Origin: an uncultured Gammaproteobacteria bacterium
Lineage (GTDB): Bacteria; Patescibacteriota; Patescibacteriia; 2-12-FULL-60-25
DNA length: 64,000 nt
NCBI GenBank assembly: GCA_964542945.1
Contig: CAZIVC010000004.1
Span: 8,062-72,061, forward strand
Direction: 5' to 3'
Shown: piece after piece, positions 5,657-34,438 of the stretch
Numbering within the stretch: position 1 is the first letter of the stretch
Layout of the letters: every line of letters begins with the position of its first letter
Notes under the pieces: model-generated
The model's input: only the letters and a program-made list of their open reading frames with translations
Told to the model about the DNA's origin: nothing
The model's database searches: none
Translations under genes and position numbers: made by a program

Positions 5657-5691
5657 AAAAGGAGCTCTCGATGTTTTGAGAGCTTCTTTTT
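5657..5691 (+). terminator. rho-independent terminator of infB
   Basis: About 10-bp stem (GGAGCTCTC 5661-5669 / GAGAGCTTC 5678-5686) followed by a T-run at 5687-5691. Confidence 0.75.
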
Positions 5692-5751
5692 ATCTTGCTC
5701 TCTTTGCGTTGTCATTTTATGATCCTGGTATTACTCTGAATCTGATCTTCT

Positions 5752-6072: not shown

Positions 6073-6079
6073 ACCCGCT

Positions 6080-7015: not shown

Positions 7016-7031
7016 ACCCCGCATTGAAAAT

Positions 7032-7058
7032 CAAAACCCCCGGTAAAACCGGGGGTTT
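7032..7058. terminator. bidirectional rho-independent terminator
   Basis: A-run, 9-bp stem AACCCCCGG 7034-7042 / CCGGGGGTT 7048-7056, T-run. It works on both strands. Confidence 0.8.
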
Positions 7059-7207
7059 TCAAGTCCTCAAGCAATCCGCACCCAAGAAACCTTTCTAGAG
7101 GGGAGGGCGAGTCCGAAGACCAGCAACACCCTGCGGAAAGGTCCCATGCTTGTCGTGGATGCGGATTGCTAAAGAACTCGAAGCTCTTTTCACGAAACCA
7201 ATTAATG
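7032..7207 (-). ncRNA. candidate small RNA (about 175 nt, or about 235 nt from the upstream promoter); family unassigned
   Basis: Two canonical minus-strand promoters point into this region. It contains a 101-nt irregular hairpin (7069-7169) of 11+4+7+4+3 bp with an apical C(UUCG)G loop on the minus strand. A second small hairpin (7171-7187) needs a G-U pair that exists only on the minus strand. The region ends at the 7032-7058 terminator. No coding potential is apparent. Confidence 0.4.
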
Positions 7208-7214
7208 TTGGCGT

Positions 7215-7243
7215 ATCGTACCAGAACGAACGGGGTGTGTCAA
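7215..7243 (-). promoter_or_regulatory. sigma70-like promoter P2 (TTGACA-N17-TACGAT, minus strand)
   Basis: Reverse complement of 7238-7243 is TTGACA, spacer is 17 nt, and reverse complement of 7215-7220 is TACGAT. Confidence 0.45.
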
Positions 7244-7272
7244 GAATATCCTAACACACCGTTTGGACTTGT

Positions 7273-7301
7273 ATTATCCCTAGGAACATCCAAATTGTCA
7301 A
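7273..7301 (-). promoter_or_regulatory. sigma70-like promoter P1 (TTGACA-N17-GATAAT, minus strand)
   Basis: Reverse complement of 7296-7301 is TTGACA, spacer is 17 nt, and reverse complement of 7273-7278 is GATAAT. Confidence 0.45.
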
Positions 7302-7354
7302 GCGAGCCTAAACGAATTCTAGTGGGGATACGCCAACTAATTTAATAAACCGTG

Positions 7355-9208: not shown

Positions 9209-9383
9209 TCAAAAGATCGGCCTCTGGGGGCGAGTCTTTAACGATCAGCCAAAGCGCGTCTGTGGAAGGCGGAGGAGTCGCTGTACTCACTGGAAGCGGG
9301 ATCACGAAGGTGTTTCCTTCGATGTGAAGAGTGAGCTCGTTATTTGTTGATGCCAAAAGACGGCACGGAAGCACGTATTCCAT
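9189..9383 (-). CDS. small hypothetical protein (64 aa)
   Basis: Its TAG stop (9189-9191) is 1 nt from the alternative VanW start at 9187, a translational-coupling geometry. No SD and no recognisable motif. Confidence 0.3.
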   Translation of the reverse strand: MEYVLPCRLLASTNNELTLHIEGNTFVIPLPVSTATPPPSTDALWLIVKDSPPEADLLNELLSS

Positions 9384-9414
9384 GCGCGTAGGTTAGCACG
9401 ATTCGAAGGTGGTT

Positions 9415-9816
9415 TCAATGTGTGCGCACGGGTATTTTACGATGTGCGGTTCGAATAGGAAGCCTAATCTCTAAGACGCCGTTAACATAGCTTGCTTGGG
9501 CACGTTCGCTTTCTACGTCTTCTGGAAGGAGAATGGTTCGGCTAAAGCTCCCCCAATAGCACTCACGATGCATCCAGTCGTGCTCTTCAATGGATCGCTT
9601 GTGTGAACGTTGGCCACGGATCGTGAGCAAATCGTGATGAACGTGAATATCAAGGTCGTTGGGTTTCGCTCCAGCAACGGGCGCACGCACGATAAGATCT
9701 GACCCATCGCGAAAAACATCGACGGCAAGCTCACCTTCTTCGGTCGGAAGAAACGATAAATCACTTGCCTCCAAGGGAGCGTCTGTTTTTGTAAAGGAGA
9801 GGGCGATGTCTGGCAT
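9415..9816 (-). CDS. Hsp20/alpha-crystallin family small heat-shock protein
   Basis: Alpha-crystallin domain (LAVDVFRDGSDLIVRAPVAGAKPNDLDIHVHHDLLTIRGQR ... GSFSRTILLPEDVESERAQASYVNGVLEIRLP). The ORF track starts at 9870. I prefer ATG 9816 (MPDIAL...) because an extended -10 box lies inside the longer ORF. Confidence 0.85.
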   Translation of the reverse strand: MPDIALSFTKTDAPLEASDLSFLPTEEGELAVDVFRDGSDLIVRAPVAGAKPNDLDIHVHHDLLTIRGQRSHKRSIEEHDWMHRECYWGSFSRTILLPEDVESERAQASYVNGVLEIRLPIRTAHRKIPVRTH

Positions 9817-9829
9817 AGCGTTATCATGC

Positions 9830-9838
9830 ATTATAGCA
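9830..9838 (-). promoter_or_regulatory. extended -10 box TGCTATAAT upstream of hsp20
   Basis: Reverse complement of 9830-9838 is TGCTATAAT, a perfect TATAAT with a TGn extension. It ends 13 nt before ATG 9816. Confidence 0.4.
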
Positions 9839-9904
9839 GAGTTGCAGACAGGGATAAAAAGACGTTGCATGGTTTGTGTGATACACTTCGCTTATTCCTA
9901 TTAT

Positions 9905-10612
9905 ATGCGAGCCGGTCCTTTTAAAGAACGATTTCGAGCATGGTGGAATGAGCTTTATCCTGAACAACGAAGCTCGCTCCTCGTGATTGGCCCCTTGGGG
10001 GTCTTGGCATTGTTTTTATCCATATGGCAGCTGCAGTCGCATCTCACTTTTCCTTTTCGGGTGTCACGCGAAACTCTTGCCGTTGCAAATAAATTGGCGC
10101 CAAAGAATACACCCGAACCTGTCACCCAAGATACTGACGGTGATGGCTTGTATGATCGTGACGAAATGGAACGCTATTTTACATCGCCTTATCTGGACGA
10201 TACGGATTCAGACGGAATCTTGGATGGCGAAGAGGTTCGACTTAATAAAAACCCGAACTGCCCGGAAGGAAAAACGTGCGGCTATGGAGGGGGTGAGGGG
10301 GAGATTGTTGAATCAACGAGTACCCTTCGTGTTTCGAGCGGAGCGAATACGGCGGCGCTTCTACCGGATGGTCAACTCACGACCCCTCCCTTGCCAGAAG
10401 AGGCGAACGGGGAACAGATTCGTCGATACCTGTTACAGAACGGACTTATTTCTACAAGTCTTTTATCTTCGCTCGACGAAGCGGGTGTGCTAGAATTATA
10501 TCGTCGTTTATATCCAGAGATTCAGGGGGTGACGCGTTTGCAATCCTCGCCTGTAACGAGTACGCCGCCAACATCATTTACGACTTCAACCGCTTCATCT
10601 CCTCAACCATAG
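9905..10612 (+). CDS. membrane protein with thrombospondin type-3-like Ca-binding repeats and Ser/Thr/Pro tail
   Basis: ATG 9905 (MRAGPFKERF...) is in frame within ORF 9659-10612. The upstream part of that ORF overlaps hsp20 antisense. One TM helix (SSLLVIGPLGVLALFLSIW). Repeats DTDGDGLYDRDE and DDTDSDGILDGEE. It ends 15 nt before the giant gene. Confidence 0.7.
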   Translation: MRAGPFKERFRAWWNELYPEQRSSLLVIGPLGVLALFLSIWQLQSHLTFPFRVSRETLAVANKLAPKNTPEPVTQDTDGDGLYDRDEMERYFTSPYLDDTDSDGILDGEEVRLNKNPNCPEGKTCGYGGGEGEIVESTSTLRVSSGANTAALLPDGQLTTPPLPEEANGEQIRRYLLQNGLISTSLLSSLDEAGVLELYRRLYPEIQGVTRLQSSPVTSTPPTSFTTSTASSPQP

Positions 10613-10627
10613 CCCTGCGCTCACTGT

Positions 10628-13600
10628 ATGGTTTCGCTCTCTCATCGCCCGTTCTTTCGTCGGTTTTTCGCCGCCCTGTTTTTGCTCGTAATGGTCTTTG
10701 CGCTCGTTCCTCGAACGAGTTTTGCCTTTTCTGCGGATGGGCCAACGATTCTCGATCGTGTTCCTGCTGCTGGGTATCCAACCATGGATGTTGGGCAAAA
10801 GGTTGATGCTGCTTATCAAAACATTCGTTACGAATTACTGGGCGCGGGTACGATAGCCCTCATGAACGCGGCGCAGGTGTTTTTTGGTCAATTAGCCTAC
10901 GATTTTGCAAACTACTTAGCATCGGGAGGCAAGGGGCAGGGCGCATTGTTTTATAAAAAGGGTTTCGATGGATATTTAAAAGATGTTTCTGGGTCGGCAT
11001 TGGGTGAGTTTATAGGCTCTCTGTCGCAAGGAGAGGGGTTAGCCGGGTCGAATAACTTTTTTCGTGGACTGGGCCTCGACTTGTGCGCTCCGAATCCGAG
11101 TTCGCTTCTTCGTATCCAGCTTTCGCTTGGGGGGATGTTTCCAAATCCCGGTCAGGGGCGATTTCAGCGCCCTCGTCCCCGTTGTGAATTCAATGACATT
11201 GTTCAGAATTATGATCGTTTGTACACGAGCATGTCGAACGGTGATGTTTTGAAGAACTTGGAAGCGAACTTAAACACAAACGCAAACGACCTCGGAGTCG
11301 CGTTTTCCATTTTCGGTCGATCAGAAGAATTCATGCTCAACCGCCGAAATGCGGCGCAGCAAGATCGTCAGGAAGGGGGTGGGTTTTTGGGTATTTCCAG
11401 CATTATCTCAGGAAACGTTCGTACGCCAGCGGAAACAATTCGAGAGCAAACCAATAATCAACTCGTTCGAGCTCCTCAGCAACAACAGCTGGCCATGACC
11501 ACCTCGCTTTTAGAAAACGCGTGGAATCTTGGTCCGATTCGTTTAGCGACCTACACCGCTTCTATTTTTCTTAATACGCTTACAAATCGATTGTTGCAGC
11601 GTGTGATGGAAGATGGAATTGGGGTATTTGACTTTTTGTTCCAAAATGGTGGAGGGAACGTTAGTGACCCTGATGATATTGCGGAAGGCGATAAGAAAGA
11701 TGTTCGTCAAGCAAATATCGGGATTCGTACGCCAATGCTATTTAAAAATGAAGCGTACGATGTATTGAGCGAGATGCAGGCCTGCCCGCCAGAAAATCGT
11801 GGTACGTGGAACTGTACTCTCGATGAAGGTCTCTCGCTCGCTGTGCGTATTAAGGACGGATTGGGAGGAGTGACGATTTTGGACGCTCTCGAGCGTGGCT
11901 ATCTCCATCAAGATTGGCCTTTGTTGCCCGCGTCTTCTTACGAAGATGAGCGCGACCCCTTGTGTTATTCTCGGGCGTACTGTACGGGGAACCTGCGTAA
12001 ATTACGAGCGATGCGCATTTTGCCGGTCGGCTTTGAATTTGCGGCAAATAGTCAAGAAAATATTGAGCGTTGCGCATCTACGCGAGGCTGTATCACGTTG
12101 GGTGATGTCGTGAAAGAGTTTCAAAATTGCAATGCTCAAGGCGAGCGCGACGGAGCCCATCCTTGGTGCAAGTTAATTGATCCAAACTGGGTCATCGCAC
12201 TTCCGCAGCAGCAATGTGCCTTAAATGGCTATGGCGAAACATTTCTCGCTGGCTCCATCCCGCAGCGTCGTCAGGAGTGTCAGGATATTCAAACCTGTTT
12301 GCAGCGCAATGATCGCGGTGAATGCGTGGGTGGATATGGGTATTGTGTCGCCGAAAAAACGGTTTATCGTTTCGGCGCGCAAGAATGTAAGCCGCGCAAT
12401 GCTTCTTGCCGAACCTATCAAAACCCGGCCGGAGAAACCGTTTCTTATCTTCGAAATACCCTCGATTACTCCGCCTGTACGCAAGACAATGTTGGTTGTC
12501 GCTGGTATGCGACGGAACGTTCCGTTTCGGGGGTGGCAGACGCATGGGAGGGAACGGTCACGGTTGGACCTCGCCAGTATATGGATAATTCTTTTCAAGA
12601 ATGTCCCGCCGATCAAGACGGTTGTACGAAGCTTCTCGAGGTAAAATCCGGCGTCGCAGGATTAAACATAATCGAAAACAGCTCCTTTGAACGGACGACG
12701 CAAAATGGAGCCCGGCTCACGGGTTGGCTACCTTACGCGGGAGGGAATGACGCGTTTGTTCCTCCGCGTGGGGAAGGTTCACTCAGCATTGACGGTCAGT
12801 CTTCTGCGTCATTTGCGGGTGGATTTAGCGGCGGCTACCTCCAAACGATCGCGCTTGAACCGAATCGAACCTATGTCGTTTCCGCGTTTGTTCGAGCTCA
12901 GGCGACAAACGGAGCACGTGTTACGGTCGGAGTCCGTCAGTTCGATAACGCTTCACCCGCCGATGGGAACGTTCTATCTGGTACGGATGTCGCTCGTGAT
13001 TTTGTGAGCCGCGAGTGTGTATACGACGCAGAATCGCGAGCTCTTGTTATTCGTGCAGGAACAAACTTGGATGGCCAGGGAACGAATTGGAAGCGAATAG
13101 AATGCGCATTTACCACGAATGCTCAGACGCATTCAGGTCAACTTGTCATCACGAATGGTCGCGATGCGCTCGTAGACGCGGTCCAGATAGAGGAGGGTTC
13201 GACGGCAGGAACATGGATCGATGGAGCGAATACGTCGCTCGCGGCTGTTCATCTCAAGCTTCCGCCGACCGAGTTGCGTTGTACGGGAGCGGCAAACGAT
13301 CCTGCGATTTGTGGTCAGTATGCAAAAGTGTGTCGTCAGACAGAGGCGGGATGTGATGGGTTCACTGATAAATCTGGTATTTTTCCAGAAGTCGCTGCTC
13401 AGATGACAGCGGGCGACGCTTGTCCAAGCGCATGTGTTGGATATGCGGAGTTTCGTAAGCTGCCATCATCATTTGACTTAGTACGTAACGCGATCGCCGA
13501 TGTAAATGATCCCGAAGATGCCACGTCAACGTACTTTATTCCTGCGACGGCAGAAGCATGCTCCGAAGAGAATGTAGGCTGTGAGGCGTTCACCGCTCTT

Positions 13601-16600
13601 TCGGCAAGTTCGAGCGAGCAGGTGAGCTACTTTAAGGCGGTTCGCTATTGTGAGCAGCCGGGAAACGACACGGAGACGTATTTCACATGGGAAGGATCTG
13701 AATCCACGGGGTACCAATTGCGTACCTGGAGCTTAAAGAAGCGCACACCGGAAAAACCAGGAGTCACCCCACCAGAAGGGGCGGAGGTGGGCACGAGTGC
13801 TGGTCCTCGGGTTGTGATTACAGGTTCTTCGGACTTGTCGGCGCAACGCGATCCTTTAGCGTGTAACGAAAGCGCTTGGCGTGCACAGACGGATGCAGAT
13901 TGCCGTCAATTCTACGATTCAACAGGTGTTGTTTACTACCGTTTTTATTCGCAAACCGTGATCTCGTCAGACGCGTGTCAGGCGTACCGTATTGCTCGGT
14001 CAAATAATGCAGACTGTACGAAAACGGGCGGTAGCTGGAATGCGCAGACGGCTAGTTGTACCTATAACGTATTAGCCTCAGAAAGCCGAACATGCTCTCA
14101 AGAGTTCGCCGGATGTCGTGCGTATGCTGGGGCTGAAGCGGGAAATATTCAAACGACACTGAACGCGTCATTTCGCTCGAATCAGGAAAGTGGGTTCACG
14201 GGTGGTCGTATTTCAACGGAAGCGCTTTCTGTAAACGATGGGTCGTATCGTGTTGATGTCGCAGCGCGCTCAACGGGATCCGTCGGTGTTTCTCCAACGG
14301 GTGATGCGAACGGTCTTTACCGTGTGAATTTCTGGGCGAAGGCGTCCGCACCAACGGCGGTCACCTTTCGTCGTGGAGCGGCAGATGGTGACGTGATTGC
14401 CACAGCAGCGCTCACGACAGATTGGCGTCAGTACACCTTTGGCTTGTTTAAGGGCGAGGCAGGGCAGATGCGTTTGTCTTGGAATTTTGCCGCAGATCAG
14501 GTCGGAAGCGCCGTGTTCATCGATGAGGTGCTCATTCAGAAAATGCAAGACGTGGTATATGTGAAACAAGGAACGTGGAATACGCCGGCTGTATGCGATC
14601 AAAATGCTTATAGCGTGCCAGAACCGCAGGCGATGTTGGGTTGTCGCTTGTATCGTAAGCGAAGCGGTGAAGAGGTGGCTGTTCGTCAATTTACGCGCCT
14701 TTGTCGTCAGGATGTAATCGGCTGTAAGGCGTTTATTGATACGCGTAATTCTGATTCAGCGTACAAACAAACGTTTGTTGTGGGAACGGGCGCTGATACA
14801 GTAACGACGACCCGTCGCGCCGACCACGTTGTCTACGTCATCGACGAACCGGGTAAGCGATGTAAATCTGAAAACGCGAGTTGTCGCGCCTTTGGAAAAC
14901 CGGTGTTTTCGGCAGATCATGCCACGATTCAGCGCTTTGAGACGGTTTACTTTAAGGATGATATCAATGTCTATCCGCAAGGGCTGTGTCGAGCTTCGGA
15001 GCTGTTTTGCCAAGAATTTGCAGCCAGCGCAGGAAAAGAATACTTCAAAGATCCGGAAGGAAAGACCTGTGAATATCGTGAAAATGTGACAGTCTCTGGA
15101 GTAATAGGCGTTTCTGGTGGTCAGTATTCTGGCTGGTTTCAGACCGACACGTCCATTCCGTGTTATCCAAACGCGCTTACATCAGGATCAAGTTTTAGCA
15201 TTCTTCGCACAGGCGACGCGTTGCCGGCTCCTGGATATAGTGGCTGGGTGGGATCGTGTGAAGAGCAAGAGGCGGAGTGTACGGAATTTCGTGATCCGAA
15301 TGATCGAAGCAGTGATTTTACGACGGGCAGATCATACTTCTTCCTGAGGAATAATCAGATTGATACAACATCGTGCGCGGGAACGGTTGATCCATCGAAG
15401 GGGTGTGTGCTGCTTCGTGACATGTCGAGTGCTCAGCCGCTTTACAACACCAATGCATCCTATGCGGCGTTTCAGGCAAACCGATTGAACCCAGTCCAGC
15501 CGGTGAATTGCCAAACGGATCCAACAAACCAACACTGTCGGCAAGGAGCCATTGTTGGGCGTTGTCAGATTGAGACGCGAACGCTACGTCGCCGTGTTGA
15601 ACGTGTAGGAACCGACTTTGTTAACGATGTTCCAACGCGATTTATCGATCAAATTGTGGAGACGTCGCAGACGGCTACAACGACGGGTGGAGTATGTACA
15701 TTCGACCGAGATTGTGAAGCTCCTGTTTCGTCGGTTGGTCCAGATGTGGTGTATGTCGATAGAAACGGACGTAACGTGCTCACACCGTCGTTCGAGAGTC
15801 GATCGGTGGCGTCCTGCATTCCCGGAGAAGTGAACGATGCCAACATCATCGCGAAGGTCACTCTTGATCGTGACTGTGCTCAGTGGCTTGGGTGTTCGAG
15901 TGGCGAAACGGTCTTTGATCCTGCCACGGGTCGTTACCGGGAGATTTGCACCAACACGGCCATGTGTGATCGCTTGGGAGCTAATGGCGGAGAGCAGTTC
16001 TGCGCAAACTATGTATCGCGCTCAACAACGACAACGGAGCCGGTATTAACAAAGGGGGCTTACTTTGATGCGTCTCGGTACGCGTCGCGACAAGTTGGTT
16101 TGGGCCGCAAAGATTATTCTGGGTTCGCCGTTCCAGGCGCCTTTCAGGTGGCTGATCTTCGAAATGCCAAGATGGCAGACTTAATTGGAAGCGCCGATAC
16201 GGGCCTTGGGAAAGAAGCCCGCATGGTGGTAGCCGTACGCATGCCTCCTGTGCGCCGGACCCGTGGTTCCGTGAACCAGTTCGAACAGGTCATTCGAACA
16301 ACGCAACCAAACGAAGCAATGGTGCTTGCAAATGATGATCCGCTGCGTGCCGCGTTTCCCGGGTATCGCTTATGTCGTCATGTGGGTACCGGCAGAATAG
16401 GATTCTTTTCTCCGGTCGAAGCGCAGAACTCTGACACCACGGGCCAGTCGTTAAATTGTTACTTGTCATTTCGCGGAGCGTCCGAAGCATATGACTTTCA
16501 GCGCTTGGCACAAGCGGAGAGTCGAGAGGGTGGCGTTGGTCAAAACGACATTCTTGATCAAGCATTCCCAGGGGCGATCTGCCGCGCCTATCCAGAGCCG

Positions 16601-19600
16601 AACTCTCCTTATGCTAAAGAGACGGTTCTTAAATGGGATATGTCAAAGAACCCGATCGCTCCCGAACAGAAGGCGACCGGCTATGAACGCGTGAACACCT
16701 GTGAGTATGGGGAAGACTGCTTGTGTACATACAAACGAGCCACCTTTGAGACGGCAACGAAATTCTATGGACCGAATTCTCAAGCGATTCCGACAGGGCT
16801 GTGTGTGGGGGGTCCTCGTGCCGGACAGGCCTGTTTACCGGGTGAGATCTTTAGTATTAACGCGGCAACGGCTTCTACCACCAACGAACGAGCTGCGAGA
16901 GTCACGGAGGGGGCCAACCTGGCTCAGTCCTGTGGTCCAGTAGAGGCGGGTGGTCGCTGTGTGGCCGCGTCAGACATCTCCATTGTGCGCGGTATTTACG
17001 GAAACTGTCTTGAACCGGATACGACACGGGCTCGAGGCGCCCTCGGCCAAGAGTCTTATCCGTGCCTCACCTGGAACCCAACACCGGTCATGTTTGGAGA
17101 TAAGGATCCGTATCACTACGTTCCAACGGCAGGGTACTTCCCGCCGCAAAATGCGGGCCAGTACTACTGCGTTTCGCCGGCACGAGGAGCGAAAAATCTC
17201 TATCTCGACGCCAGTGTCTTCCCGATACTTCCAACAGGCATGACGGCGATGAGCTACTCTGACTGGACGGTATCCGATGGAAGTGCTGCGGCCACGACGG
17301 GAGATGATGCGGGGGCCTATTTCTACGGCATGAAGCCAGAAGGTAGTAACGCGGCAAAACAGTGTGAAGACGCGGATGATATTCAGGATGACGACTTGTA
17401 TAACAATGACCGAGATTCTATTGGTTTGCGTCTTATTCAGACGGGCCGGACCACGGATAGTAGCTACACCGAAACCTTCTACGGCGTTGATGCGACGAAG
17501 TTCGCGAACTGGCTCTATGGGGCAACAACGGATCGTGCAAAGGCTAAAGCAACACAGGACTACAACTTTAGCTATTTCGAGTTTCAGCCAATCAAGAACC
17601 GTAATGGCAAAGGTCGCTTAGCTTGTGCCTATCAAGAAGATTGGGTTGAGGGTGTTCGGGTAGACGACTATGCGGATGAGGATAAAATTATTGCGGCAGA
17701 TCGTCAGTGGCAGCAGAACTTCTCAAGCGAGCCAGATCGTCAGCCGTACCTCACACGTGGAAGCGAGTCGATGCTTGTTGACGCAACCGGTAAGCCCATG
17801 GCTCTTTCGTGTGAGACAAGTGGCTTGGGAACGAATGAGTTTGCCCCGGGCACATCTTGTTACTTCAAGTATTGGGAAGGAGGGTATCGCGCCTCGGGCA
17901 AAGAGGCGTTCGTTGGATTCAATCCACGCGAAGGAGGCTATCGTTCTTTTAAGGACATGGTGGTTACGCCTTACATGAAAGAATGTTCGGCGGATCGTCC
18001 TTACTACTCCATTCGGGCAGTCTTTCAGACGTCAGCAGACCGATCGGTGCAGAACTTTCCGGTGTCAGACGCGAGCGCGGCTCGTATCTCGGCGATTCGT
18101 GGTCCTTGGCGCTTTATCGGCTTCTGGGTGTCGGCGTGTGCCGGAAAGTCAACGAATGACAACCGTTTTATCTACACAACGATTCGTGTTCAAAACGCGG
18201 ACGTGTGTAAGGAGCTTGCAGAAGTTCGTTCAATCGCCTCAAACCAAGACGCGGCCTTTACGGATCGTGTGTGGAAAGATGGTAAGTATGTCGTTCCGGA
18301 TTTGAACATCGAGTACAACCAAACATTCGCACCGTTCTCGAGCGCCCTGAACACGGGGCCGGCAGGGCAAGATCCTCTCTACCAGGTGGGAGGTCGTTTA
18401 GCGGGTTTCTCGCCACTCAGGCCGCCGGTCTTCTTGGGGGCGGGGTATTCGACCTACTTCTCAGCCGCGCGAGAAGCGCCGGTTCGATCCTACGCCTATC
18501 TCACCAACCTCTTTGCTCGTATCTATCGTATTTACCGATACAACGAGCAAAAGATCGATGTGCAGGACTATATTTGCTCAGGCGGTCCGAATAAGGGTCG
18601 AAAGTGCGTTCCGGGAAATCCTCCTCAGCCAAGCGGGCGAATTCTACCGGGACCAAGCGAAGATTGTCGCGTGACAGACATGGTGGAGTGTCGAACGAAT
18701 ATCACCGCGACAGAGCGACGCGGATTGCAGTCACAAAAAATCTGTAATGCGCTTTCTGGTGTGAATGCGGGTCGCTCGTGCATAGGCCGCATACCGGAAG
18801 CGCAAGAAAGTTGTCACTTGTACGCCTTGAATCCGCGTAATAGCCAGCCGTTGCGAACATCTTGCAACGTTGTAGAAGGCTGGACGCAGCGTGACGGTGG
18901 GTGGGTCTTTCGAGCAAGAGGCGGTATCGATGGTATTGCGGAGCCGGTTACTCAAGAAGAGGCCTACGGTATGGGGGCGTTTCGTTGCGCTCCGGGAGCG
19001 GTAAAAGATGGGAGTAGGGAGGACGCTCCAACGGTTGCCTGCAGCGCTCCAACAAACGGTGCGCCAAGTCGCGAATGTCCGCTCGAGGTACGTGGTGAAT
19101 GCCGCGGGGCGGGCACGCAAGAGATTTTGGGAATAAGCGTCACCGTGCCGGGAACGTGTTTCGGGACGTGGCAGGGTCAAACGACTCCCGTCGCCTTTCC
19201 GGATGCGGCGCCGTGCATGACGAATAACGACTGTTCGTTCAACCAAAACCACTTCTGGTTGCTACGTCCGTATTCGCCGCGACTCATTTCCCGACAGGAG
19301 GCTCTCATGGTTAATGGAAGCAACCGCATGTGTTACAACTTAATGGATCGGTTGGCGAATCCGTTTTCGGCGTACGAGCCCGGATCATCGGTTGGTAGCC
19401 CGGTTGTGCCTGGCGGTCACAGCTATAGTTATGCACAGCTGGGAAGTGATTGTGACTCTCTTCTAAATCCTTGTGCTGCTAGGTTAAGAGGCATGTGTCT
19501 TGAGTCACCAATTAATACGACTGGATGGAACACTCTCTTGCCGCGTATGGGGGGGAGTTCGGGGTACGTTGGTTATGACCCTTCCGCTCGTTTCCCGGGC

Positions 19601-21580
19601 ATTGCTCCTGGTCGTGACGTGATCGGGGCGTGTGAATCGGTGACGGATCTCTTGCCGGCTCTTGCGGATCCCGCCAGTGGCCCAAGTCTCGGTGTGTGTA
19701 CCGGTGGAACGCGTATGGGTCAGACGTGTGCATCGATTCCTGATTCGGTCACGTTGTCGCGTCCAGGTTGGATGGGGGCCTCGATCGGCTGTCCGGCGGC
19801 AACAACGGCTTCCGGTTCCGATGATCAATGCGCGCCTGTCTCCGATTTTGCGCCGAGTACGCGACCTGGGACGCCAGATCGCTACACGCCGACGCGCGAA
19901 TGTCTCAAGCCTGGAGCCCGTGCGAACCAGACGAAGGAGGAATATTGGGACGGCTTGGTCCCATCTCCGGTGCTTGAGGCGCGGAACCTGAATACGGATA
20001 ACAACACCTGTACGCAAGAAGTTGGGTACGTGACAGATGCTGAAACTTGTCCCGATCCAACGAACGAGTACTGCGGGTTGCTCACATATCAATTGCGCAG
20101 TCGTGGAACAGGCGCGGGTGCACGACCGATCGCCAACTCCATTGATGGAGCTATCAATCAGAAGTTGCCAACAGACGTGACGCTTGGGTACTACACGCCC
20201 GCCTTCCTTGGTCTTCAGGGTGGAACGCCAACGAAGTACGCCTACATGGACTACTACACGCCGCGTCCGCCGCGCATCGCCGCTCCGGATACGTCGCGTT
20301 GTACAGGTTCAGGAAACTGCTCGATCGCAAGCTTCGACCGCTTCACCTTTAACGGGGTGACCGAAGGCGTGCTCAATGTGCAAGCTGGCCAGCAGCGTTC
20401 AACGATTAAGTTCTATGGATGGGCTGCTGATAACCAAATGGCGATTCGTCAGATGGCTGTCGACTGGGGAGATGGCTTCGTCCAATCCTTCGATGATGTG
20501 AAGCTCAAGAACCGCAAGCCGTTCTGTTCGGTTCAAAAAGAGTGTTATTCGCCGAGCGAAGGATTTACGGGCCTAACCTGTACGGCGGATACAGATTGTC
20601 CGGTCACGGCGCAAGCCTGTCGTCCAAAGGGAACCTGTAAAGACAATGCAGCGATTCTCTGTAGTCAGGACAGCGATTGTCGCCGTGGAGGAGGAGAAGA
20701 TACGTGTGAAGTGCGCACCTTCTTTGGAAGCAGCGCCGAGGCCTGTGAAGCCACGTACTTTGACTTCTCGCACGTCTACACCTGCAACCAGAATGCGGCG
20801 AGCCAATTGCCTCGCTGTAGCAATCGTAATCCGTTGAACGTTGACCCGGGACGCGAACTCGTGGTCCCAAGCAACGTTCGTGCGGGCACGTGCTTCTTCG
20901 GAGAATTCGATAGCATCGCGATGGAGGCCGAGCGTGATCGTCCATCGTGTCAAAACGTTTCTGAGTGTCAACGCTACTTCACGACGCGTTATCCAGAAGC
21001 GGCATCAGCAAACACGAGTAATTTCTCCTGTGGGCCAATCTCGCAAACACGAGAATATACGCTCCCGGGACCAACGCAGGCACGTTGCTCTGGTGACGCC
21101 TCACGCGTCTGTACAGATGATACGGACTGCGCTGCGGGTGACCGCTGTGTGTCTGGTGGTCTTGCGCCACCCGGAGGGTGTTTCGACGAAACGGCCGGCG
21201 TATGTCGGTATACGCCGCGTGTGCTCATTCGAGACAACTGGGGCTGGTGTACGGGCGAGTGTCGCTCGGTGCGCTTAGGAGGTGCGCTCGCCGATCCAAA
21301 CGATGCGTTGATCGTTCACCCCTATGGTGGATGTTACTCAGCGGTGCCGTTGGGATCTGTGAAGCCATACGAGCAAGCTACTCGTCTGAATACGGACGGC
21401 AATGTCTCATCGTTCGTACCAGATAGAGAAAATAATTACGACGAGTGTTCTGTAGCTGCCCCAAGTGGTCGATTCACTTCTGCAAAGAGTGGGTCAACAC
21501 CGCTGCAGGCACAGTCAACACGTAACAATCGTCCGTGGATTGTCTTTCCTGGATCGATCCAATTGCGTCCGAGAAACTAA
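10628..21580 (+). CDS. giant secreted cysteine-rich protein (3650 aa), unknown family
   Basis: Uninterrupted 10.95-kb ORF. Signal-peptide-like N-terminus (RRFFAALFLLVMVFALVPRTSFA/FS). About 140 Cys by hand count. Two CBM4/9-like beta-sandwich segments and a PKD-like VDWGDG segment. It has its own terminator. Confidence 0.9.
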   Translation: MVSLSHRPFFRRFFAALFLLVMVFALVPRTSFAFSADGPTILDRVPAAGYPTMDVGQKVDAAYQNIRYELLGAGTIALMNAAQVFFGQLAYDFANYLASGGKGQGALFYKKGFDGYLKDVSGSALGEFIGSLSQGEGLAGSNNFFRGLGLDLCAPNPSSLLRIQLSLGGMFPNPGQGRFQRPRPRCEFNDIVQNYDRLYTSMSNGDVLKNLEANLNTNANDLGVAFSIFGRSEEFMLNRRNAAQQDRQEGGGFLGISSIISGNVRTPAETIREQTNNQLVRAPQQQQLAMTTSLLENAWNLGPIRLATYTASIFLNTLTNRLLQRVMEDGIGVFDFLFQNGGGNVSDPDDIAEGDKKDVRQANIGIRTPMLFKNEAYDVLSEMQACPPENRGTWNCTLDEGLSLAVRIKDGLGGVTILDALERGYLHQDWPLLPASSYEDERDPLCYSRAYCTGNLRKLRAMRILPVGFEFAANSQENIERCASTRGCITLGDVVKEFQNCNAQGERDGAHPWCKLIDPNWVIALPQQQCALNGYGETFLAGSIPQRRQECQDIQTCLQRNDRGECVGGYGYCVAEKTVYRFGAQECKPRNASCRTYQNPAGETVSYLRNTLDYSACTQDNVGCRWYATERSVSGVADAWEGTVTVGPRQYMDNSFQECPADQDGCTKLLEVKSGVAGLNIIENSSFERTTQNGARLTGWLPYAGGNDAFVPPRGEGSLSIDGQSSASFAGGFSGGYLQTIALEPNRTYVVSAFVRAQATNGARVTVGVRQFDNASPADGNVLSGTDVARDFVSRECVYDAESRALVIRAGTNLDGQGTNWKRIECAFTTNAQTHSGQLVITNGRDALVDAVQIEEGSTAGTWIDGANTSLAAVHLKLPPTELRCTGAANDPAICGQYAKVCRQTEAGCDGFTDKSGIFPEVAAQMTAGDACPSACVGYAEFRKLPSSFDLVRNAIADVNDPEDATSTYFIPATAEACSEENVGCEAFTALSASSSEQVSYFKAVRYCEQPGNDTETYFTWEGSESTGYQLRTWSLKKRTPEKPGVTPPEGAEVGTSAGPRVVITGSSDLSAQRDPLACNESAWRAQTDADCRQFYDSTGVVYYRFYSQTVISSDACQAYRIARSNNADCTKTGGSWNAQTASCTYNVLASESRTCSQEFAGCRAYAGAEAGNIQTTLNASFRSNQESGFTGGRISTEALSVNDGSYRVDVAARSTGSVGVSPTGDANGLYRVNFWAKASAPTAVTFRRGAADGDVIATAALTTDWRQYTFGLFKGEAGQMRLSWNFAADQVGSAVFIDEVLIQKMQDVVYVKQGTWNTPAVCDQNAYSVPEPQAMLGCRLYRKRSGEEVAVRQFTRLCRQDVIGCKAFIDTRNSDSAYKQTFVVGTGADTVTTTRRADHVVYVIDEPGKRCKSENASCRAFGKPVFSADHATIQRFETVYFKDDINVYPQGLCRASELFCQEFAASAGKEYFKDPEGKTCEYRENVTVSGVIGVSGGQYSGWFQTDTSIPCYPNALTSGSSFSILRTGDALPAPGYSGWVGSCEEQEAECTEFRDPNDRSSDFTTGRSYFFLRNNQIDTTSCAGTVDPSKGCVLLRDMSSAQPLYNTNASYAAFQANRLNPVQPVNCQTDPTNQHCRQGAIVGRCQIETRTLRRRVERVGTDFVNDVPTRFIDQIVETSQTATTTGGVCTFDRDCEAPVSSVGPDVVYVDRNGRNVLTPSFESRSVASCIPGEVNDANIIAKVTLDRDCAQWLGCSSGETVFDPATGRYREICTNTAMCDRLGANGGEQFCANYVSRSTTTTEPVLTKGAYFDASRYASRQVGLGRKDYSGFAVPGAFQVADLRNAKMADLIGSADTGLGKEARMVVAVRMPPVRRTRGSVNQFEQVIRTTQPNEAMVLANDDPLRAAFPGYRLCRHVGTGRIGFFSPVEAQNSDTTGQSLNCYLSFRGASEAYDFQRLAQAESREGGVGQNDILDQAFPGAICRAYPEPNSPYAKETVLKWDMSKNPIAPEQKATGYERVNTCEYGEDCLCTYKRATFETATKFYGPNSQAIPTGLCVGGPRAGQACLPGEIFSINAATASTTNERAARVTEGANLAQSCGPVEAGGRCVAASDISIVRGIYGNCLEPDTTRARGALGQESYPCLTWNPTPVMFGDKDPYHYVPTAGYFPPQNAGQYYCVSPARGAKNLYLDASVFPILPTGMTAMSYSDWTVSDGSAAATTGDDAGAYFYGMKPEGSNAAKQCEDADDIQDDDLYNNDRDSIGLRLIQTGRTTDSSYTETFYGVDATKFANWLYGATTDRAKAKATQDYNFSYFEFQPIKNRNGKGRLACAYQEDWVEGVRVDDYADEDKIIAADRQWQQNFSSEPDRQPYLTRGSESMLVDATGKPMALSCETSGLGTNEFAPGTSCYFKYWEGGYRASGKEAFVGFNPREGGYRSFKDMVVTPYMKECSADRPYYSIRAVFQTSADRSVQNFPVSDASAARISAIRGPWRFIGFWVSACAGKSTNDNRFIYTTIRVQNADVCKELAEVRSIASNQDAAFTDRVWKDGKYVVPDLNIEYNQTFAPFSSALNTGPAGQDPLYQVGGRLAGFSPLRPPVFLGAGYSTYFSAAREAPVRSYAYLTNLFARIYRIYRYNEQKIDVQDYICSGGPNKGRKCVPGNPPQPSGRILPGPSEDCRVTDMVECRTNITATERRGLQSQKICNALSGVNAGRSCIGRIPEAQESCHLYALNPRNSQPLRTSCNVVEGWTQRDGGWVFRARGGIDGIAEPVTQEEAYGMGAFRCAPGAVKDGSREDAPTVACSAPTNGAPSRECPLEVRGECRGAGTQEILGISVTVPGTCFGTWQGQTTPVAFPDAAPCMTNNDCSFNQNHFWLLRPYSPRLISRQEALMVNGSNRMCYNLMDRLANPFSAYEPGSSVGSPVVPGGHSYSYAQLGSDCDSLLNPCAARLRGMCLESPINTTGWNTLLPRMGGSSGYVGYDPSARFPGIAPGRDVIGACESVTDLLPALADPASGPSLGVCTGGTRMGQTCASIPDSVTLSRPGWMGASIGCPAATTASGSDDQCAPVSDFAPSTRPGTPDRYTPTRECLKPGARANQTKEEYWDGLVPSPVLEARNLNTDNNTCTQEVGYVTDAETCPDPTNEYCGLLTYQLRSRGTGAGARPIANSIDGAINQKLPTDVTLGYYTPAFLGLQGGTPTKYAYMDYYTPRPPRIAAPDTSRCTGSGNCSIASFDRFTFNGVTEGVLNVQAGQQRSTIKFYGWAADNQMAIRQMAVDWGDGFVQSFDDVKLKNRKPFCSVQKECYSPSEGFTGLTCTADTDCPVTAQACRPKGTCKDNAAILCSQDSDCRRGGGEDTCEVRTFFGSSAEACEATYFDFSHVYTCNQNAASQLPRCSNRNPLNVDPGRELVVPSNVRAGTCFFGEFDSIAMEAERDRPSCQNVSECQRYFTTRYPEAASANTSNFSCGPISQTREYTLPGPTQARCSGDASRVCTDDTDCAAGDRCVSGGLAPPGGCFDETAGVCRYTPRVLIRDNWGWCTGECRSVRLGGALADPNDALIVHPYGGCYSAVPLGSVKPYEQATRLNTDGNVSSFVPDRENNYDECSVAAPSGRFTSAKSGSTPLQAQSTRNNRPWIVFPGSIQLRPRN

Positions 21581-21582
21581 TC

Positions 21583-21610
21583 AAAAGACTCCCTTCGGGG
21601 AGTTTTTTGT
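21583..21610 (+). terminator. rho-independent terminator of the giant gene
   Basis: Stem ACTCCC 21588-21593 / GGGAGT 21598-21603 with a UUCG loop, then T6. Confidence 0.8.
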
Positions 21611-21757
21611 TCGTAAAAAACGGTCAGTGAAGACTTGTACCTTCGCGTGAAGAGCGAGGCGACGCCCACGCACCGGAGTAAGGCGTATGCAACCATACGC
21701 CGTCGAGAAGCGGAGGCGGCAACAAAGCTATTCGCCAAAGGCGGGAAGTCTTGCGGT

Positions 21758-21782
21758 AAAAAAAACGACCCCAGAAGGGGTT
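21758..21782 (-). terminator. rho-independent terminator of the GC-rich lipoprotein gene
   Basis: Minus strand reads GAACCCC TTCT GGGGTC followed by T8 (A-run 21758-21765 on +). Confidence 0.7.
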
Positions 21783-22621
21783 CAGGTGCAGCTCGGCCTC
21801 GTCGTCAGGAAGCGCTGCCGCCTCGTCATGTCCTCCGTCCCGTCGGGGCGGAAGACGCGGAGATAGGCGGCGCATCGTCCCTCGAACGAGAGTTCGAAAC
21901 TCCAGGCGGTGTTGCCGGGAAGGCCCGAGAGCCCCCGTCGGTAGTAGCAGGCCGGTCCTGCGCAGCGGAGGGTGACAGACTCCTCTCCGAGCACCGGTCG
22001 CGTGTCTCGAGGGGCTGACGTGAGGACGATCATTCGGTATCCGTGCTCATCTCGCTGGAACATGGTTCCATCGATGTTGAGCGCGTTGTCACCGTTCGTC
22101 CAGCTATACTCGCCCCAGATCATCTCGCGCTCGTTGTTACGCCAGCGCGTGAGGGTGAGAGTCGTCGAGCGGAAGAAGTCGTTCTCGCTCACGAACGGCG
22201 ACCAGTCGGTGCCGCGCGGAAGGTCCACGTTGCAGTGGTTTCGCCCCGGTGCGCAGCTGATCTGCGCCATGCATCCGGGCATCATTTCACCCGTGCGGCA
22301 CGGCTCCGGCATGTCTCGTTCGGTGACGGCACAGGTGCAGGCCTGCGCGCCCTCACAGAGGACGTTGTCCTCGTTGGGGCGGCAGAGGGCCGCGCCGCGA
22401 CAGGTGTCGGTCGGGTGCGGAACACAGGCCATCGTCTGGCCCGCATCCGGCATGGTCGCGCCGCGGTCGCCCGGGGGCGTCGCGGCATCGGTCGTGGCGC
22501 GGTCGGTGCTGGGCACGTCGTTCATCGCGACGGTCCCGGCATCCGGCGTGGGGGTGTTGGTGGGGTCGGTCCCTCCGCAGCCCATCAGGCTGAGGAGAGC
22601 GAACGCGGTGAGCTTCTTCAT
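21782..22621 (-). CDS. lipoprotein, Cys-rich with acidic Pro/Asp/Thr linker (GC-rich island 1)
   Basis: MKKLTAFALLSLMGCGG has a lipobox (LMGC). SD AAGGAG lies 6 nt upstream of the ATG. A sample 60-nt line (22381-22440) is 44/60 G+C versus 26-32/60 in flanking lines. Confidence 0.8.
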   Translation of the reverse strand: MKKLTAFALLSLMGCGGTDPTNTPTPDAGTVAMNDVPSTDRATTDAATPPGDRGATMPDAGQTMACVPHPTDTCRGAALCRPNEDNVLCEGAQACTCAVTERDMPEPCRTGEMMPGCMAQISCAPGRNHCNVDLPRGTDWSPFVSENDFFRSTTLTLTRWRNNEREMIWGEYSWTNGDNALNIDGTMFQRDEHGYRMIVLTSAPRDTRPVLGEESVTLRCAGPACYYRRGLSGLPGNTAWSFELSFEGRCAAYLRVFRPDGTEDMTRRQRFLTTRPSCT

Positions 22622-32718: not shown

Positions 32719-33612
32719 ATGTTTGAAGCCGTTATTATTGGTGGTGGGCCTGCCGCGCTTGGAGCGGCGGAAACGCTTTTAAAACAAGCGATTCCCTTTG
32801 CGTGGATGACAGGTACTCGGCGTTCGGTTTTTTTGGAAGAACAAGCATCTGTCGACATTTTTCCTTCGTGGGAGGACCTAATGAACCGTGCGGAAAAGCT
32901 GTTGCGCAAGAGCAAAGCCCAGTTTTTGTTGAAAGAAGGAGGGCGCGTCACGGATATTCAGCGTTCTGGGGGTGTTTTTCGACTTCGTTTAGAGAGCGGC
33001 GAACTGATTGATGCTCAAACCGTGGTACTCGCATCTGGCGTGAAGGCGCGACGGCTATCTGTTGAAGGAGAAGAGATGTTTTTAGGGAAGGGGATTCGCT
33101 ACGGAATTCCTCTTGAGCGACTTTCGTTTCAAGATAAGCAAGTAGCTGTAGTGGGGGGAGGGATGATGGCAATTGAGTCCGCGTTTACGATTGCGCCTTT
33201 AGCGGCATCCCTAAATCTACTCGTGGCACAACCGCGTTTATCAGGCAATGCGTTGCAAAAACGACGACTACTTGAAACGCCTCGTTTAACTCTCACGACC
33301 GGAGTCTCGATTATTGCCTTTGAAGGGAAAAAGCATCTCTCGACAGTGCGCTTTGTGGGACCGGATCAACGCGAACGTACGCTTAAAGTGGATGAGGTTG
33401 TCTTGGCAACTGGGACAGAGCCGGGTGCAGAATATGTTTCCTTTCTTGCGAAGGATCGTTTCGGTCGTGTGATTGTTGACAAGTATCAAAGTACGAATGT
33501 TGAGGGGATATGGGCTGCGGGCATGGTAACGGACCGAGGGATTAACGATCCGCACTGTGCCTTCGGAGAGGGTGTTCGGGCGGCGCTGGAAGTCACTCGG
33601 TATTTACGTTAA
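32719..33612 (+). CDS. thioredoxin-reductase-like flavoprotein lacking the redox-active CxxC
   Basis: IIGGGPAALGAA FAD motif, second Rossmann motif VVGGGMMAIE and C-terminal AAGMVTD. Where trxB has GVSACATCDG, this protein reads GKGIRYGIPLE. Confidence 0.75.
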   Translation: MFEAVIIGGGPAALGAAETLLKQAIPFAWMTGTRRSVFLEEQASVDIFPSWEDLMNRAEKLLRKSKAQFLLKEGGRVTDIQRSGGVFRLRLESGELIDAQTVVLASGVKARRLSVEGEEMFLGKGIRYGIPLERLSFQDKQVAVVGGGMMAIESAFTIAPLAASLNLLVAQPRLSGNALQKRRLLETPRLTLTTGVSIIAFEGKKHLSTVRFVGPDQRERTLKVDEVVLATGTEPGAEYVSFLAKDRFGRVIVDKYQSTNVEGIWAAGMVTDRGINDPHCAFGEGVRAALEVTRYLR

Positions 33613-33616
33613 AGTC

Positions 33617-34303
33617 ATGGCATTGATTATGAATGAACAGAAAAAACTGGGCACAGCCCTTGCTTTGGGGGTGATTATTATCTTGGGGGGGCTTGTTTGG
33701 GCGTTGATGCGCACTCCATCTAATCGTCCCGACCCGGCCGGAAAAATCACTTTTGACAGCGCGCTCGAAACGCCCTCTCAGGGAAAGCAAGATGCGGCGG
33801 TCATTGTTCACTTGTATAGCGACTTTCAATGTCCCGCCTGTCGTATTGCAGAAGAGCCGCTCGCAAAAACGATTGAGGTGTATAAAGACCGTGTGAAGTT
33901 TGTGTGGCGCGATTTTCCGCTCATGAGCATTCATCCGAACGCTCGCAATGCGGCGAACGCGGCGTGGTGCGCAAACGAACAAGGAAAATTTTGGCCGTTC
34001 CATGACCTCTTATTCATGGAACAAGATCGCTGGGCGGGCGAGTCTAATCCGCGCGACCGTTTTATCGATATGGCGCGTCGGTTTGATCTCAATGTCGACC
34101 AATTTACGGGCTGTTACAACGATCGTAAGTACGACAATAAAGTAATGGCAGGTGTCGACGAAGGAAATCGTAATGCTGTTGATCGTACCCCGACGGTATT
34201 CATAAATAAAAAGCGCGCATTTGGGATGTCAGAATCGGAGTGGAGCCAGGCTTTAGAAAAGGCGTTGGCTGATGCAGCGGCTGTTTCCTCAACGACTCCT
34301 TGA
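33617..34303 (+). CDS. membrane-anchored DsbA/BdbD-like thiol-disulfide oxidoreductase
   Basis: TM helix LGTALALGVIIILGGLVWAL and a thioredoxin fold with the CPAC active site (YSDFQCPACR). Confidence 0.8.
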   Translation: MALIMNEQKKLGTALALGVIIILGGLVWALMRTPSNRPDPAGKITFDSALETPSQGKQDAAVIVHLYSDFQCPACRIAEEPLAKTIEVYKDRVKFVWRDFPLMSIHPNARNAANAAWCANEQGKFWPFHDLLFMEQDRWAGESNPRDRFIDMARRFDLNVDQFTGCYNDRKYDNKVMAGVDEGNRNAVDRTPTVFINKKRAFGMSESEWSQALEKALADAAAVSSTTP

Positions 34304-34438
34304 CACAGGGGCTTGCTCGACGGGCGGTGGACACGTATTCTATAATAGACGATCTTTGATCGCTCGCTTATTTGACCGCACTCGTTCTTCTCTTGTGAGT
34401 TGAGTGAGTGCTCGTAACTTTGCTCTCTTCTCCACACT

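Follow-up and report, generated by a model that had tools for sequence, protein, structure and literature searches.

What does a bacterium with a small genome gain from an uninterrupted open reading frame (ORF) of 3650 codons, and what is the role of the small membrane-protein gene that precedes it? The questions are raised by a 64,000-nucleotide stretch of DNA (the window), whose numbering is used for all coordinates below, with the strand given for each feature. Positions 9905-21610 are best explained as a two-gene operon on a chromosome of the Candidatus Uhrbacteria lineage (Patescibacteria, or Candidate Phyla Radiation, CPR). We propose, with confidence that is about evenly divided, that this operon specifies an exported, disulfide-stapled, glycan-binding surface protein, which is tethered or assembled by a membrane partner with thrombospondin type 3 (TSP3) repeats. 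The operon has three parts.

9905..10612 (+): small partner gene, 235 aa by ORF translation, 15 nucleotides (nt) upstream of the giant gene.
10628..21580 (+): giant gene, 3650 aa with 140 Cys; mature protein of ~392 kDa, isoelectric point (pI) 5.2.
21588..21610 (+): intrinsic terminator read from the sequence, with the stem ACUCCC/GGGAGU, a UUCG loop and then a U-run.

Is the giant gene intact? Translation of 10628-21580 (+) gives 3650 codons from ATG to TAA with no internal stop, as had been claimed in an earlier, sequence-only reading of the window. The UUCG-loop terminator named in that reading also holds: folding of 21578-21615 yields -17 kcal/mol (z = -5.2 against shuffles), and the stem reaches 12 pairs when the flanking A- and U-runs pair. 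An independently assembled ENA contig equals window positions 8905-11253 at 99.96% identity, covers the 5′ junction of the giant gene, and has the 235-aa gene called identically. Some orthologs in metagenome assemblies are interrupted, which is what an assembly artefact, a chimeric join or a decaying pseudogene would lead one to expect. Locus L001 has an in-frame TAA at codon 628 (L001 11882-11884) and L002 a frameshift (~8150-8236); in L041 two adjacent same-strand ORFs (5304-9539 and 9543-14576, with the break at 9540-9542) replace the single giant, and in L051 its reading frame is split. Against such an explanation stand the uninterrupted ORF of the window, the colinear intact ORFs of 52 other genomes, the conservation of cysteines and motifs along the whole length, and the independent contig across the 5′ junction; even the L001 copy is conserved over its full length despite its TAA (46% identity to the window protein). 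The simplest account of the interruptions is that they are errors of sequencing or assembly, or else recent lesions, and we attach next to no weight to the artefact explanation. The giant gene is real and conserved, neither artefact nor orphan.

How widely is it distributed? We scanned GTDB, one genome per species, with two peptide patterns taken from the giant protein, and found a relative encoded in 178 species genomes, most matches covering nearly the whole protein. Eighty of these loci, each from a different assembly, were kept for examination, and 52 loci carry an intact full-length giant ORF (2500-4300 aa). Wherever the record titles of the relatives are informative, they name Candidatus Uhrbacteria, Patescibacteria group or Parcubacteria. 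Many of the records for L003-L082 are titled 'uncultured Gammaproteobacteria bacterium' (third-party binchicken metagenome-assembled genomes) though they clearly belong to the Uhrbacteria/Patescibacteria lineage, and the title looks like a placeholder or a mislabel. Word-index searches added 10 short fragment matches, one of them named Candidatus Magasanikbacteria. When aa 430-1629 were used as the query in a HMMER scan of 1.84 billion representatives of clusters formed at 50% identity, 1113 clusters were found at E<=1e-30; their members, mostly 2600-4400 aa long, are colinear, the query aligning at the same relative position. Named public records call the protein 'hypothetical protein [Patescibacteria group bacterium]'. 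Homolog-bearing contigs measure 1.24-1.52 Mb, of which the ~11-kb giant gene makes up 0.7-0.9%. Across 54 aligned sequences conservation is highest in aa 400-2200; two stretches, aa 2651-3195 and aa 3400-3500, are hypervariable, with many insertions and deletions.

What kind of protein is it? The giant divides into the following regions.

10628..10726 (+): Sec-type signal peptide, aa 1-33 (RRFF...TSFA/FS: basic n-region, h-region, small-x-small site).
10727..11776 (+): Cys-poor, family-specific N-terminal domain, aa 34-383; no Pfam or PDB match with a 50-sequence profile.
11777..12223 (+): most conserved subdomain, small and helical, aa 384-532, from the alignment (AlphaFold2 predicted local distance difference test, pLDDT, 81; predicted template modeling score, pTM, 0.76).
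12224..12664 (+): Cys-hairpin block 1 (C-x6-C-polar-x-aromatic); cysteines conserved in 53/54, repeat detected by hhalign.
12665..13207 (+): jelly roll no. 1, aa 680-860, of the type of carbohydrate-binding module (CBM) families 4/9 (Pfam CBM_4_9).
13235..14137 (+): Cys-hairpin block 2, aa 870-1170, from Cys conservation, hhalign and the motif list.
14153..14554 (+): CBM4/9-like jelly roll no. 2, aa 1176-1309 (hhalign against no. 1: probability 95%, E 3e-8).
14585..17227 (+): Cys-hairpin block 3, a variable insert (aa 1651-1735) and a conserved Cys-rich core (aa 1740-2200), from the conservation profile; no PDB match.
17228..18577 (+): conserved Cys-sparse region, aa 2201-2650, with the motifs GPWRFVGFWV and NLFARIYRIYR; no PDB match.
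18578..20212 (+): hypervariable Cys-rich region with many indels, aa 2651-3195 (alignment occupancy 0.18-0.6, identity low among 54 sequences).
20213..21577 (+): conserved C-terminal region with DWGDG and DNWGWCTGEC motifs and a strand-like tail, RPWIVFPGSIQLR; no significant PDB or Pfam match.

That the giant protein is exported and extracytoplasmic is a solid conclusion. Heuristic checks of n-region, h-region and cleavage site identify a cleavable Sec signal in the window protein (RRFF-FAALFLLVMVFALV-PRTSFA, followed by FS); a basic n-region and a hydrophobic h-region recur in 53/53 members, with AxA at the cleavage site in 37/53 and a similar small-x-small site in the remainder. The only hydrophobic segment of the protein is aa 8-36. 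Neither an LPXTG signal (LPxT[GAS] scan) nor a C-terminal hydrophobic or transmembrane segment was found in the giant, and it lacks the marks of a sortase substrate; nor does it have those of a lipoprotein, for it has no lipobox, and the window signal peptide is free of Cys, which first occurs at residue 153. A TSP3 motif is likewise absent from it. The extreme C-terminus has a conserved strand-like motif, [RDN]PW[IV]x[YF]xG..., and no known sorting signal. On all these points (the signal peptide and the absence of a C-terminal transmembrane anchor, LPXTG and lipobox) the sequence-only reading was right.

How are the cysteines used? The protein contains exactly 140 (3.8% of residues), the number reached earlier by a hand count of about 140. 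The N-terminus is Cys-poor as had been noted, although the accompanying figure of four cysteines in the first ~380 residues needs a small correction: just C153 and C186 precede residue 385, and C386 and C396 bring the number to 4 within the first 400. Comparison with the 46%-identical L001 homolog shows 129 of the 140 retained, the remainder lying in indels; 86/140 recur in 80% or more of 54 sequences, and most of the cysteines between aa 530 and 2200 in 49-54 of the 54. Once the signal peptide is removed, the Cys count is even in 52-53/53 members across reasonable cut sites, and each of the six members with an odd total has one Cys inside the signal peptide; the binomial probability of an even count in 53/53 is ~2e-16. 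Spacing is non-random as well. Consecutive gaps of 6-7 residues number 30 of 139 (8.7 +/- 2.9 expected), 30 is also the family median, and the window giant contains 12 copies of the motif C-x(5,6)-C-polar-x-aromatic. Complete intramolecular pairing (~70 bonds) predicts this combination of even count and Cys pattern, and free thiols or metal sites do not. The case that the cysteines behave as paired is, at the level of sequence, a solid one, and it suggests that the disulfides actually form, in keeping with the disulfide-rich exported giant of the sequence-only reading.

Candidate catalysts are encoded 12 kb downstream of the giant gene.

33557..35194 (+): two membrane-anchored DsbA/MdbA-like thiol-disulfide oxidoreductases (Pfam Thioredoxin_4 and DSBA; transmembrane segments, CxxC).

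The two genes (33557-34303 and 34439-35194) encode CPAC and CPFC sites, and their products are the likely catalysts of disulfide formation in the giant, though they are not specific to the cassette. MdbA-like oxidoreductases are reported to be enriched in CPR genomes and have been proposed to oxidise secreted proteins (bioRxiv 10.1101/335083). The pair ends a cluster at 31948-35194 (+) that also includes Lgt (prolipoprotein diacylglyceryl transferase) and a flavoprotein resembling thioredoxin reductase (32719-33612). A Pfam scan of window ORFs turned up no recognisable VKOR or DsbB partner; the adjoining 192-aa soluble ORF (35266-35844) has no Pfam match.

Is the giant built of repeats? Tandem Repeats Finder (TRF) detects none in the gene, which also has no direct DNA repeats of at least 24 nt, and BLASTP of the protein against itself reveals no internal repeat. 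Profile-profile comparison (hhalign) uncovers a degenerate one, consisting of three ~90-aa double Cys-hairpin modules (aa 584-680, 897-993 and 1333-1422) with weak reciprocal matches (E 1e-5 to 4e-4). The earlier statement that long nucleotide-level repeats are missing holds; the degenerate protein repeat was beyond the reach of the sequence-only reading.

Two modules of the giant can be named. CBM_4_9 (PF02018) is present at aa 680-774 (E 5.7e-9; 36.9 bits against a cut-off of 25.9) and in 12 of 13 diverse full-length members, none of which matches any other Pfam family; the giant is not the simple tandem-repeat adhesin that the sequence-only reading had also dismissed. Searched against PDB, the family profile retrieves the carbohydrate-binding chains of an S-layer-associated endoglucanase, hyaluronate lyase, alginase and laminarinase 16A, and jelly roll no. 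2 matches the carbohydrate-binding part of a xylanase (4xup) weakly. The presence of two CBM-type modules is, by sequence criteria, solid, and it suggests that the protein binds glycans.

The remainder resists assignment. Profiles of aa 1-1250, 1251-2250, 2251-3650, 30-400, 384-532 and 3195-3650 gave only carbohydrate-binding-module matches in PDB, and a lenient Pfam search of 50 N-terminal and 47 C-terminal regions returned single matches at chance level. NCBIfam, which includes models of the Myxococcus cysteine-rich repeats, assigned no family to the giant at E<=0.1. For about 90% of the protein Pfam, NCBIfam and PDB offer no match; the earlier impression of a protein matching nothing that could be named is accurate for that share and missed the two CBM4/9 modules. 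AlphaFold2 models of aa 34-690, built from an 11-sequence alignment, have a pLDDT of 42 and are unusable except at aa ~394-523; those of the N-terminal domain show long helices at low confidence (pLDDT ~30-45). In the conserved subdomain at aa 384-532 R460, R463, G468, E470, A472 and A473 are invariant. Foldseek, run with the model of this subdomain against PDB and BFVD, found no match (best E 3.5-6, template modeling score ~0.2). We considered a PKD domain for the DWGDG...HxY C-terminus and rejected it: the 47 regions contain no PKD match (E<=5) and only small Cys-knot families at chance level.

Size and extracellular nature alone would fit an RHS/teneurin-type or polymorphic toxin, or a classical repeat adhesin (Ig-like, cadherin or MAM7). 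Pfam and NCBIfam show no RHS, YD or teneurin match in the window giant or in 12 further diverse homologs; arrays of Ig-like, cadherin, FN3 or MAM7 domains are not seen by Pfam, nor repeats by BLASTP, TRF or the direct-repeat search. The DNA and protein thus lack strong repeats, and the C-terminus is conserved, not polymorphic. Matches of most pieces of the protein to a well-characterised family of this sort (RHS/teneurin, MAM7, Ig-like) would have counted against the sequence-only reading, and none were found. A toxin or repeat adhesin of these types is effectively refuted, and we regard it as very improbable.

What, then, is the small gene? In all 54 loci with a full-length giant, clustering of the flanking ORFs places it directly upstream on the same strand, the gap being mostly 2-6 nt or a 4-nt overlap; it is the sole universal neighbor of the giant. 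An adjacency this tight, in 54 of 54 loci, points to co-transcription and, probably, translational coupling. The dedicated partner that the sequence-only reading had suspected, a 235-aa protein encoded 15 nt upstream with one transmembrane helix, two TSP3 loops and a Ser/Thr/Pro tail, is borne out both in its features and in its conserved position. The following elements can be distinguished.

9974..10027 (+): transmembrane helix, aa 24-41, by hydropathy; a single N-terminal transmembrane segment is conserved in the family.
10130..10234 (+): two TSP3-type Ca2+-binding repeats (DTDGDGLYDRDE and DTDSDGILDGEE), 23 residues apart (Pfam TSP3_bac).
10250..10279 (+): Cys pair DPNCPxGxxC after the TSP3 repeats (family consensus).
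10418..10513 (+): C-terminal motif IRxxLxxxG...LxxLxDxxLxxxY (family consensus; no significant PDB or Pfam match).

The protein has a mass of 26 kDa and crosses the membrane once. Its N-terminus is short and basic and hence probably lies inside the cell; its ectodomain is acidic (pI 4.4), and its tail is rich in Ser, Thr and Pro. The TSP3 loops (nt 10130-10165 and 10199-10234) exceed the TSP3_bac (PF18884) cut-off barely, at 25.2 bits against 25, and D76, T77, D78, D80, D84, E87, D103 and D107 are invariant in 47 homologs. The profile of the small protein matches the Ca-binding repeats of staphylococcal Bap (7c7r, E 0.0045). Its family consensus reads W..L..EQK, the transmembrane segment, PF, and then KDTDxDGLSDYDE...YxTSPYLxDTDSDG..D..E...GxDPNCPxGxxC, after which a variable linker leads to the C-terminal motif, a candidate docking element. 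Two other identities were examined and set aside. A dockerin would require Dockerin_1, and Pfam at E<=1 gives TSP3_bac and three sub-threshold, chance-level matches only; the resemblance to GspM/PilO (Pfam T2SSM, E 0.25) covers just the transmembrane segment.

The wider surroundings differ between two clades. Upstream genes encode VanW, HSP20, thioredoxin, thioredoxin reductase and IF-2 in one clade, and GroEL, PrfB, an epimerase, TsaC and KsgA in the other, with NusA and YidC downstream in some loci. As no other neighbor is universal, the conserved unit is a two-gene cassette. We rejected a functional link to VanW, HSP20 or thioredoxin and its reductase, which are adjacent in one clade only (26-30 of 54 loci), and also a type IV pilus or secretion-system context, the neighbors being housekeeping genes.

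These surroundings bear on the main rival to our proposal. The cassette could encode a core structural part of the envelope, such as an S-layer-like or 'exoskeletal' disulfide-stabilised coat or a wall scaffold, with the TSP3 protein as its anchor and the CBMs bound to the cell's own wall polysaccharide. The pair is conserved lineage-wide, as the 80 loci from as many assemblies attest; it sits among housekeeping genes (IF-2, RNase Y, GroEL, PrfB, KsgA, NusA, YidC); the giants are colinear and share a conserved core at aa 400-2200; and a rhamnose and glycosyltransferase cluster in the window, together with MurJ, indicates an elaborate wall. S-layer proteins, however, are usually much smaller, Cys-poor and self-assembling, no SLH or other known S-layer or wall-anchoring domain was found by Pfam in the 13 diverse members, and the hypervariable C-terminal third fits outward-facing ligand binding better. 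We consider a coat or scaffold role doubtful.

A second rival turns on the missing anchor. With a signal peptide that appears cleavable and nothing in the giant to hold it, the protein could be released and act on prey, a host or environmental polymers, in a lytic or scavenging role that would depend on unrecognised catalytic domains, and the small protein would then be a helper in export or folding. CBM4/9 modules are typical appendages of glycoside hydrolases, the ~90% of the sequence that is unannotated could hide enzymes, and a link to cell-wall degradation has been drawn for the giant genes of predatory bacteria (bioRxiv 10.1101/2023.11.21.568195). Yet no catalytic family was detected in the 13 diverse members or by comparing family profiles with PDB, and tight translational coupling with a membrane protein suggests a stoichiometric partner. 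A freely released factor seems to us distinctly unlikely.

We favor instead a tethered or surface-assembled glycan-binding protein, which might work as follows. The first gene would supply a single-pass membrane protein whose ectodomain includes the two TSP3 repeats and the Cys pair and, further on, the short C-terminal motif that the family conserves. The product of the second would be exported by Sec and relieved of its signal peptide, leaving a ~392-kDa protein locked by ~70 intramolecular disulfides, formed outside the membrane, probably by DsbA/MdbA-type oxidoreductases such as the two encoded downstream. A chain of degenerate Cys-hairpin modules would serve as the scaffold, into which two CBM4/9 jelly rolls and family-specific domains without detectable relatives are inserted, and the whole would make a rigid extracellular structure that resists proteases and shear. 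The small TSP3 protein would keep the giant on the cell surface or assemble it there, in a manner that is probably Ca2+-dependent, and the CBMs and the hypervariable C-terminal third would bind glycans, either those of another cell or those of a surface polymer. Surface retention, contact between the two proteins, the dependence on Ca2+ and the binding of glycans or of a host are each predicted from sequence features; for attachment to a host cell, which the sequence-only reading had put forward, the clues are the two carbohydrate-binding modules and the variable C-terminal third, and we would call it plausible.

Several observations weigh against this proposal. The gene is universally conserved as a single copy amid housekeeping genes, at 25-57% identity over its whole length, a pattern that looks more like that of a core envelope component than that of a fast-evolving, host-specific adhesin. 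A few orthologs (L001, L002 and L041) are interrupted. Neither an anchoring motif nor an interface for interaction was identified, and simple release is therefore possible. Structure prediction failed for most of the protein, owing to the shallow alignment, and with models so poor the giant may contain hidden enzymatic domains. Finally, CBM folds serve non-glycan contacts too.

The rest of the window has the ordinary content of a chromosome: RNase Y, IF-2, thioredoxin reductase, VanW, HSP20, MurJ, LepA, ribosomal proteins, EF-G, EF-Ts, RF-1 and the rhamnose and glycosyltransferase cluster. This cluster (42491-50479) comprises sugar-nucleotide genes of the dTDP-rhamnose type (epimerase/dehydratase, NTP transferase, RmlD, RmlC-like) and three family-2 glycosyltransferases; such a gene set points to an elaborate polysaccharide at the cell surface, a possible ligand of the CBM modules. 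Upstream of the operon, on the other strand, the HSP20 ORF (9415-9870 (-), 151 aa) begins 34 nt from the small gene when called mechanically; on the near-identical ENA contig it is called at 133 aa, which would leave ~88 nt between the divergent genes. On the + strand upstream of the operon, no sigma-70-like promoter was found. Downstream of the giant gene and convergent with it, 21782-22621 (-) encodes a 279-aa protein that has, besides a lipoprotein-type signal (MKKLTAFALLSLMGC), 14 further cysteines. The protein matches nothing in Pfam or NCBIfam and has homologs in just two related loci (L004 and L020); the G+C content around its gene is raised (56-57%, compared with ~51%).

Further along, 37006-39195 (+) encodes a 729-aa protein with a Peptidase_C25 domain (a gingipain-like cysteine protease; E 1.8e-30), which may be another surface or secreted factor. 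A G+C island at ~52-54 kb (60%, against ~51% elsewhere) coincides in position with a strongly acidic 386-aa ORF with PDVV-type repeats (52599-53759 (+)), which has no Pfam match and includes a tandem repeat of 81 nt (53085-53254, 2.1 copies, 97% identical). Two more ORFs lack matches, 57089-58849 (+) (586 aa) in Pfam and 26659-27705 (+) (348 aa) in both Pfam and NCBIfam.

Why should this cassette matter? Much of bacterial diversity falls within the CPR/Patescibacteria, whose genomes are ~1 Mb in size and which are believed to live in attachment to other cells. To our knowledge the molecules of the attachment interface are almost unknown outside the cultivated Saccharibacteria. The giant-small cassette is a concrete candidate for the surface machinery of an uncultivated lineage. 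Its larger member represents a large new set of disulfide-rich bacterial modules for structural biology, and the even-Cys rule offers a natural test case for extracytoplasmic oxidative folding, with ~70 disulfides, in a minimal cell. A bolder idea, which we think unlikely but worth stating, is that the pair forms a previously unrecognised surface organelle, ~390 kDa in size with ~70 disulfides, composed mostly of folds without solved relatives and equipped with a dedicated Ca2+-binding tether. If that were true, it would be the lineage-defining interface of Uhrbacteria, and apparently of related CPR groups such as Magasanikbacteria, to partner cells or resources, and a core determinant of an episymbiotic lifestyle in place of one adhesin among many.

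Do known systems offer a precedent? In the cellulosome a very large exported scaffold that carries a CBM is held on a monoderm-type surface by a small module of duplicated Ca2+ loops (cohesin-dockerin). The analogy with the giant is functional only, with the small partner proposed in the role of the Ca2+-loop anchor; in the cassette no cohesin or dockerin is detected, there is no visible enzyme recruitment, and the scaffold is rich in disulfides. Chlamydial OmcA and OmcB are disulfide-rich envelope proteins that provide mechanical stability through intermolecular cross-links in a diderm outer-membrane complex. What they share with the giant is the concept; they are much smaller, and no homology was detected.

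The small protein resembles Bap, Myxococcus CglD/MtsD and TSP3 proteins of the OmpA type in its DxDxDGxxD Ca2+-binding repeats. The likeness is confined to the ~45 residues of the repeats (the NCBIfam matches to CglD and MtsD are local, 20 and 14 bits against cut-offs of 400 and 800), and the protein, at 235 aa and with a single membrane pass, is not a large adhesin or lipoprotein. The two jelly rolls of the giant belong with CBM families 4, 9 and 22 (Pfam CBM_4_9) and differ from their kin in being set in a non-enzymatic, Cys-rich giant.

Proteins of comparable size have been described in other bacteria with small genomes. Giant1-5 of Apilactobacillus kunkeei (PMC12863079) and the products of Omnitrophota giant genes (bioRxiv 10.1101/2023.11.21.568195) exceed 3000 aa, are extracellular and have been proposed to act in cell-cell interaction. 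The giant of the window is like them in length, location and the notable share of a small genome that it takes up. No sequence relationship was detected with any characterised family; a disulfide-rich Cys-hairpin scaffold and an obligatory TSP3 partner may set the cassette apart from the giants of A. kunkeei and Omnitrophota.

The closest description concerns CPR Peribacteria, whose large Cys-rich extracellular proteins were proposed to provide rigidity and/or attachment (Anantharaman et al. 2016, PMC4736985). There, too, the proteins of a small-genome CPR lineage are large, carry a signal peptide, are very Cys-rich and are mostly unannotated, and a disulfide-forming protein is encoded in each genome. 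The giant fits this class, which is a descriptive one and not based on homology, and to that extent the label 'novel' in the sequence-only reading was overstated, even though the records say no more than 'hypothetical protein'. Compared by description, the two sets differ. The Peribacteria proteins average ~1650 aa, are encoded in a cluster of 14 genes, differ from strain to strain, and weakly resemble Myxococcus Cys-rich repeats or FG-GAP (PMC4736985), whereas the giant is encoded by a single gene for ~3000-4400 aa that is colinear lineage-wide, paired with a TSP3 protein, and free of such similarities. In a searchable literature library, a search on cysteine-rich, surface or thrombospondin proteins of Uhrbacteria found no description of the giant family. 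The sequence-only reading had mentioned neither the lineage-wide conservation of that family, nor its two CBM4/9 modules, nor the DsbA/MdbA-like oxidoreductases 12 kb downstream. What is new, beside the Peribacteria proteins and the other systems considered here, is a very large, colinear family that spans a CPR lineage, has an obligatory TSP3 partner, keeps to a near-perfect even-Cys rule, and is composed for the most part of regions without sequence or structural relatives.

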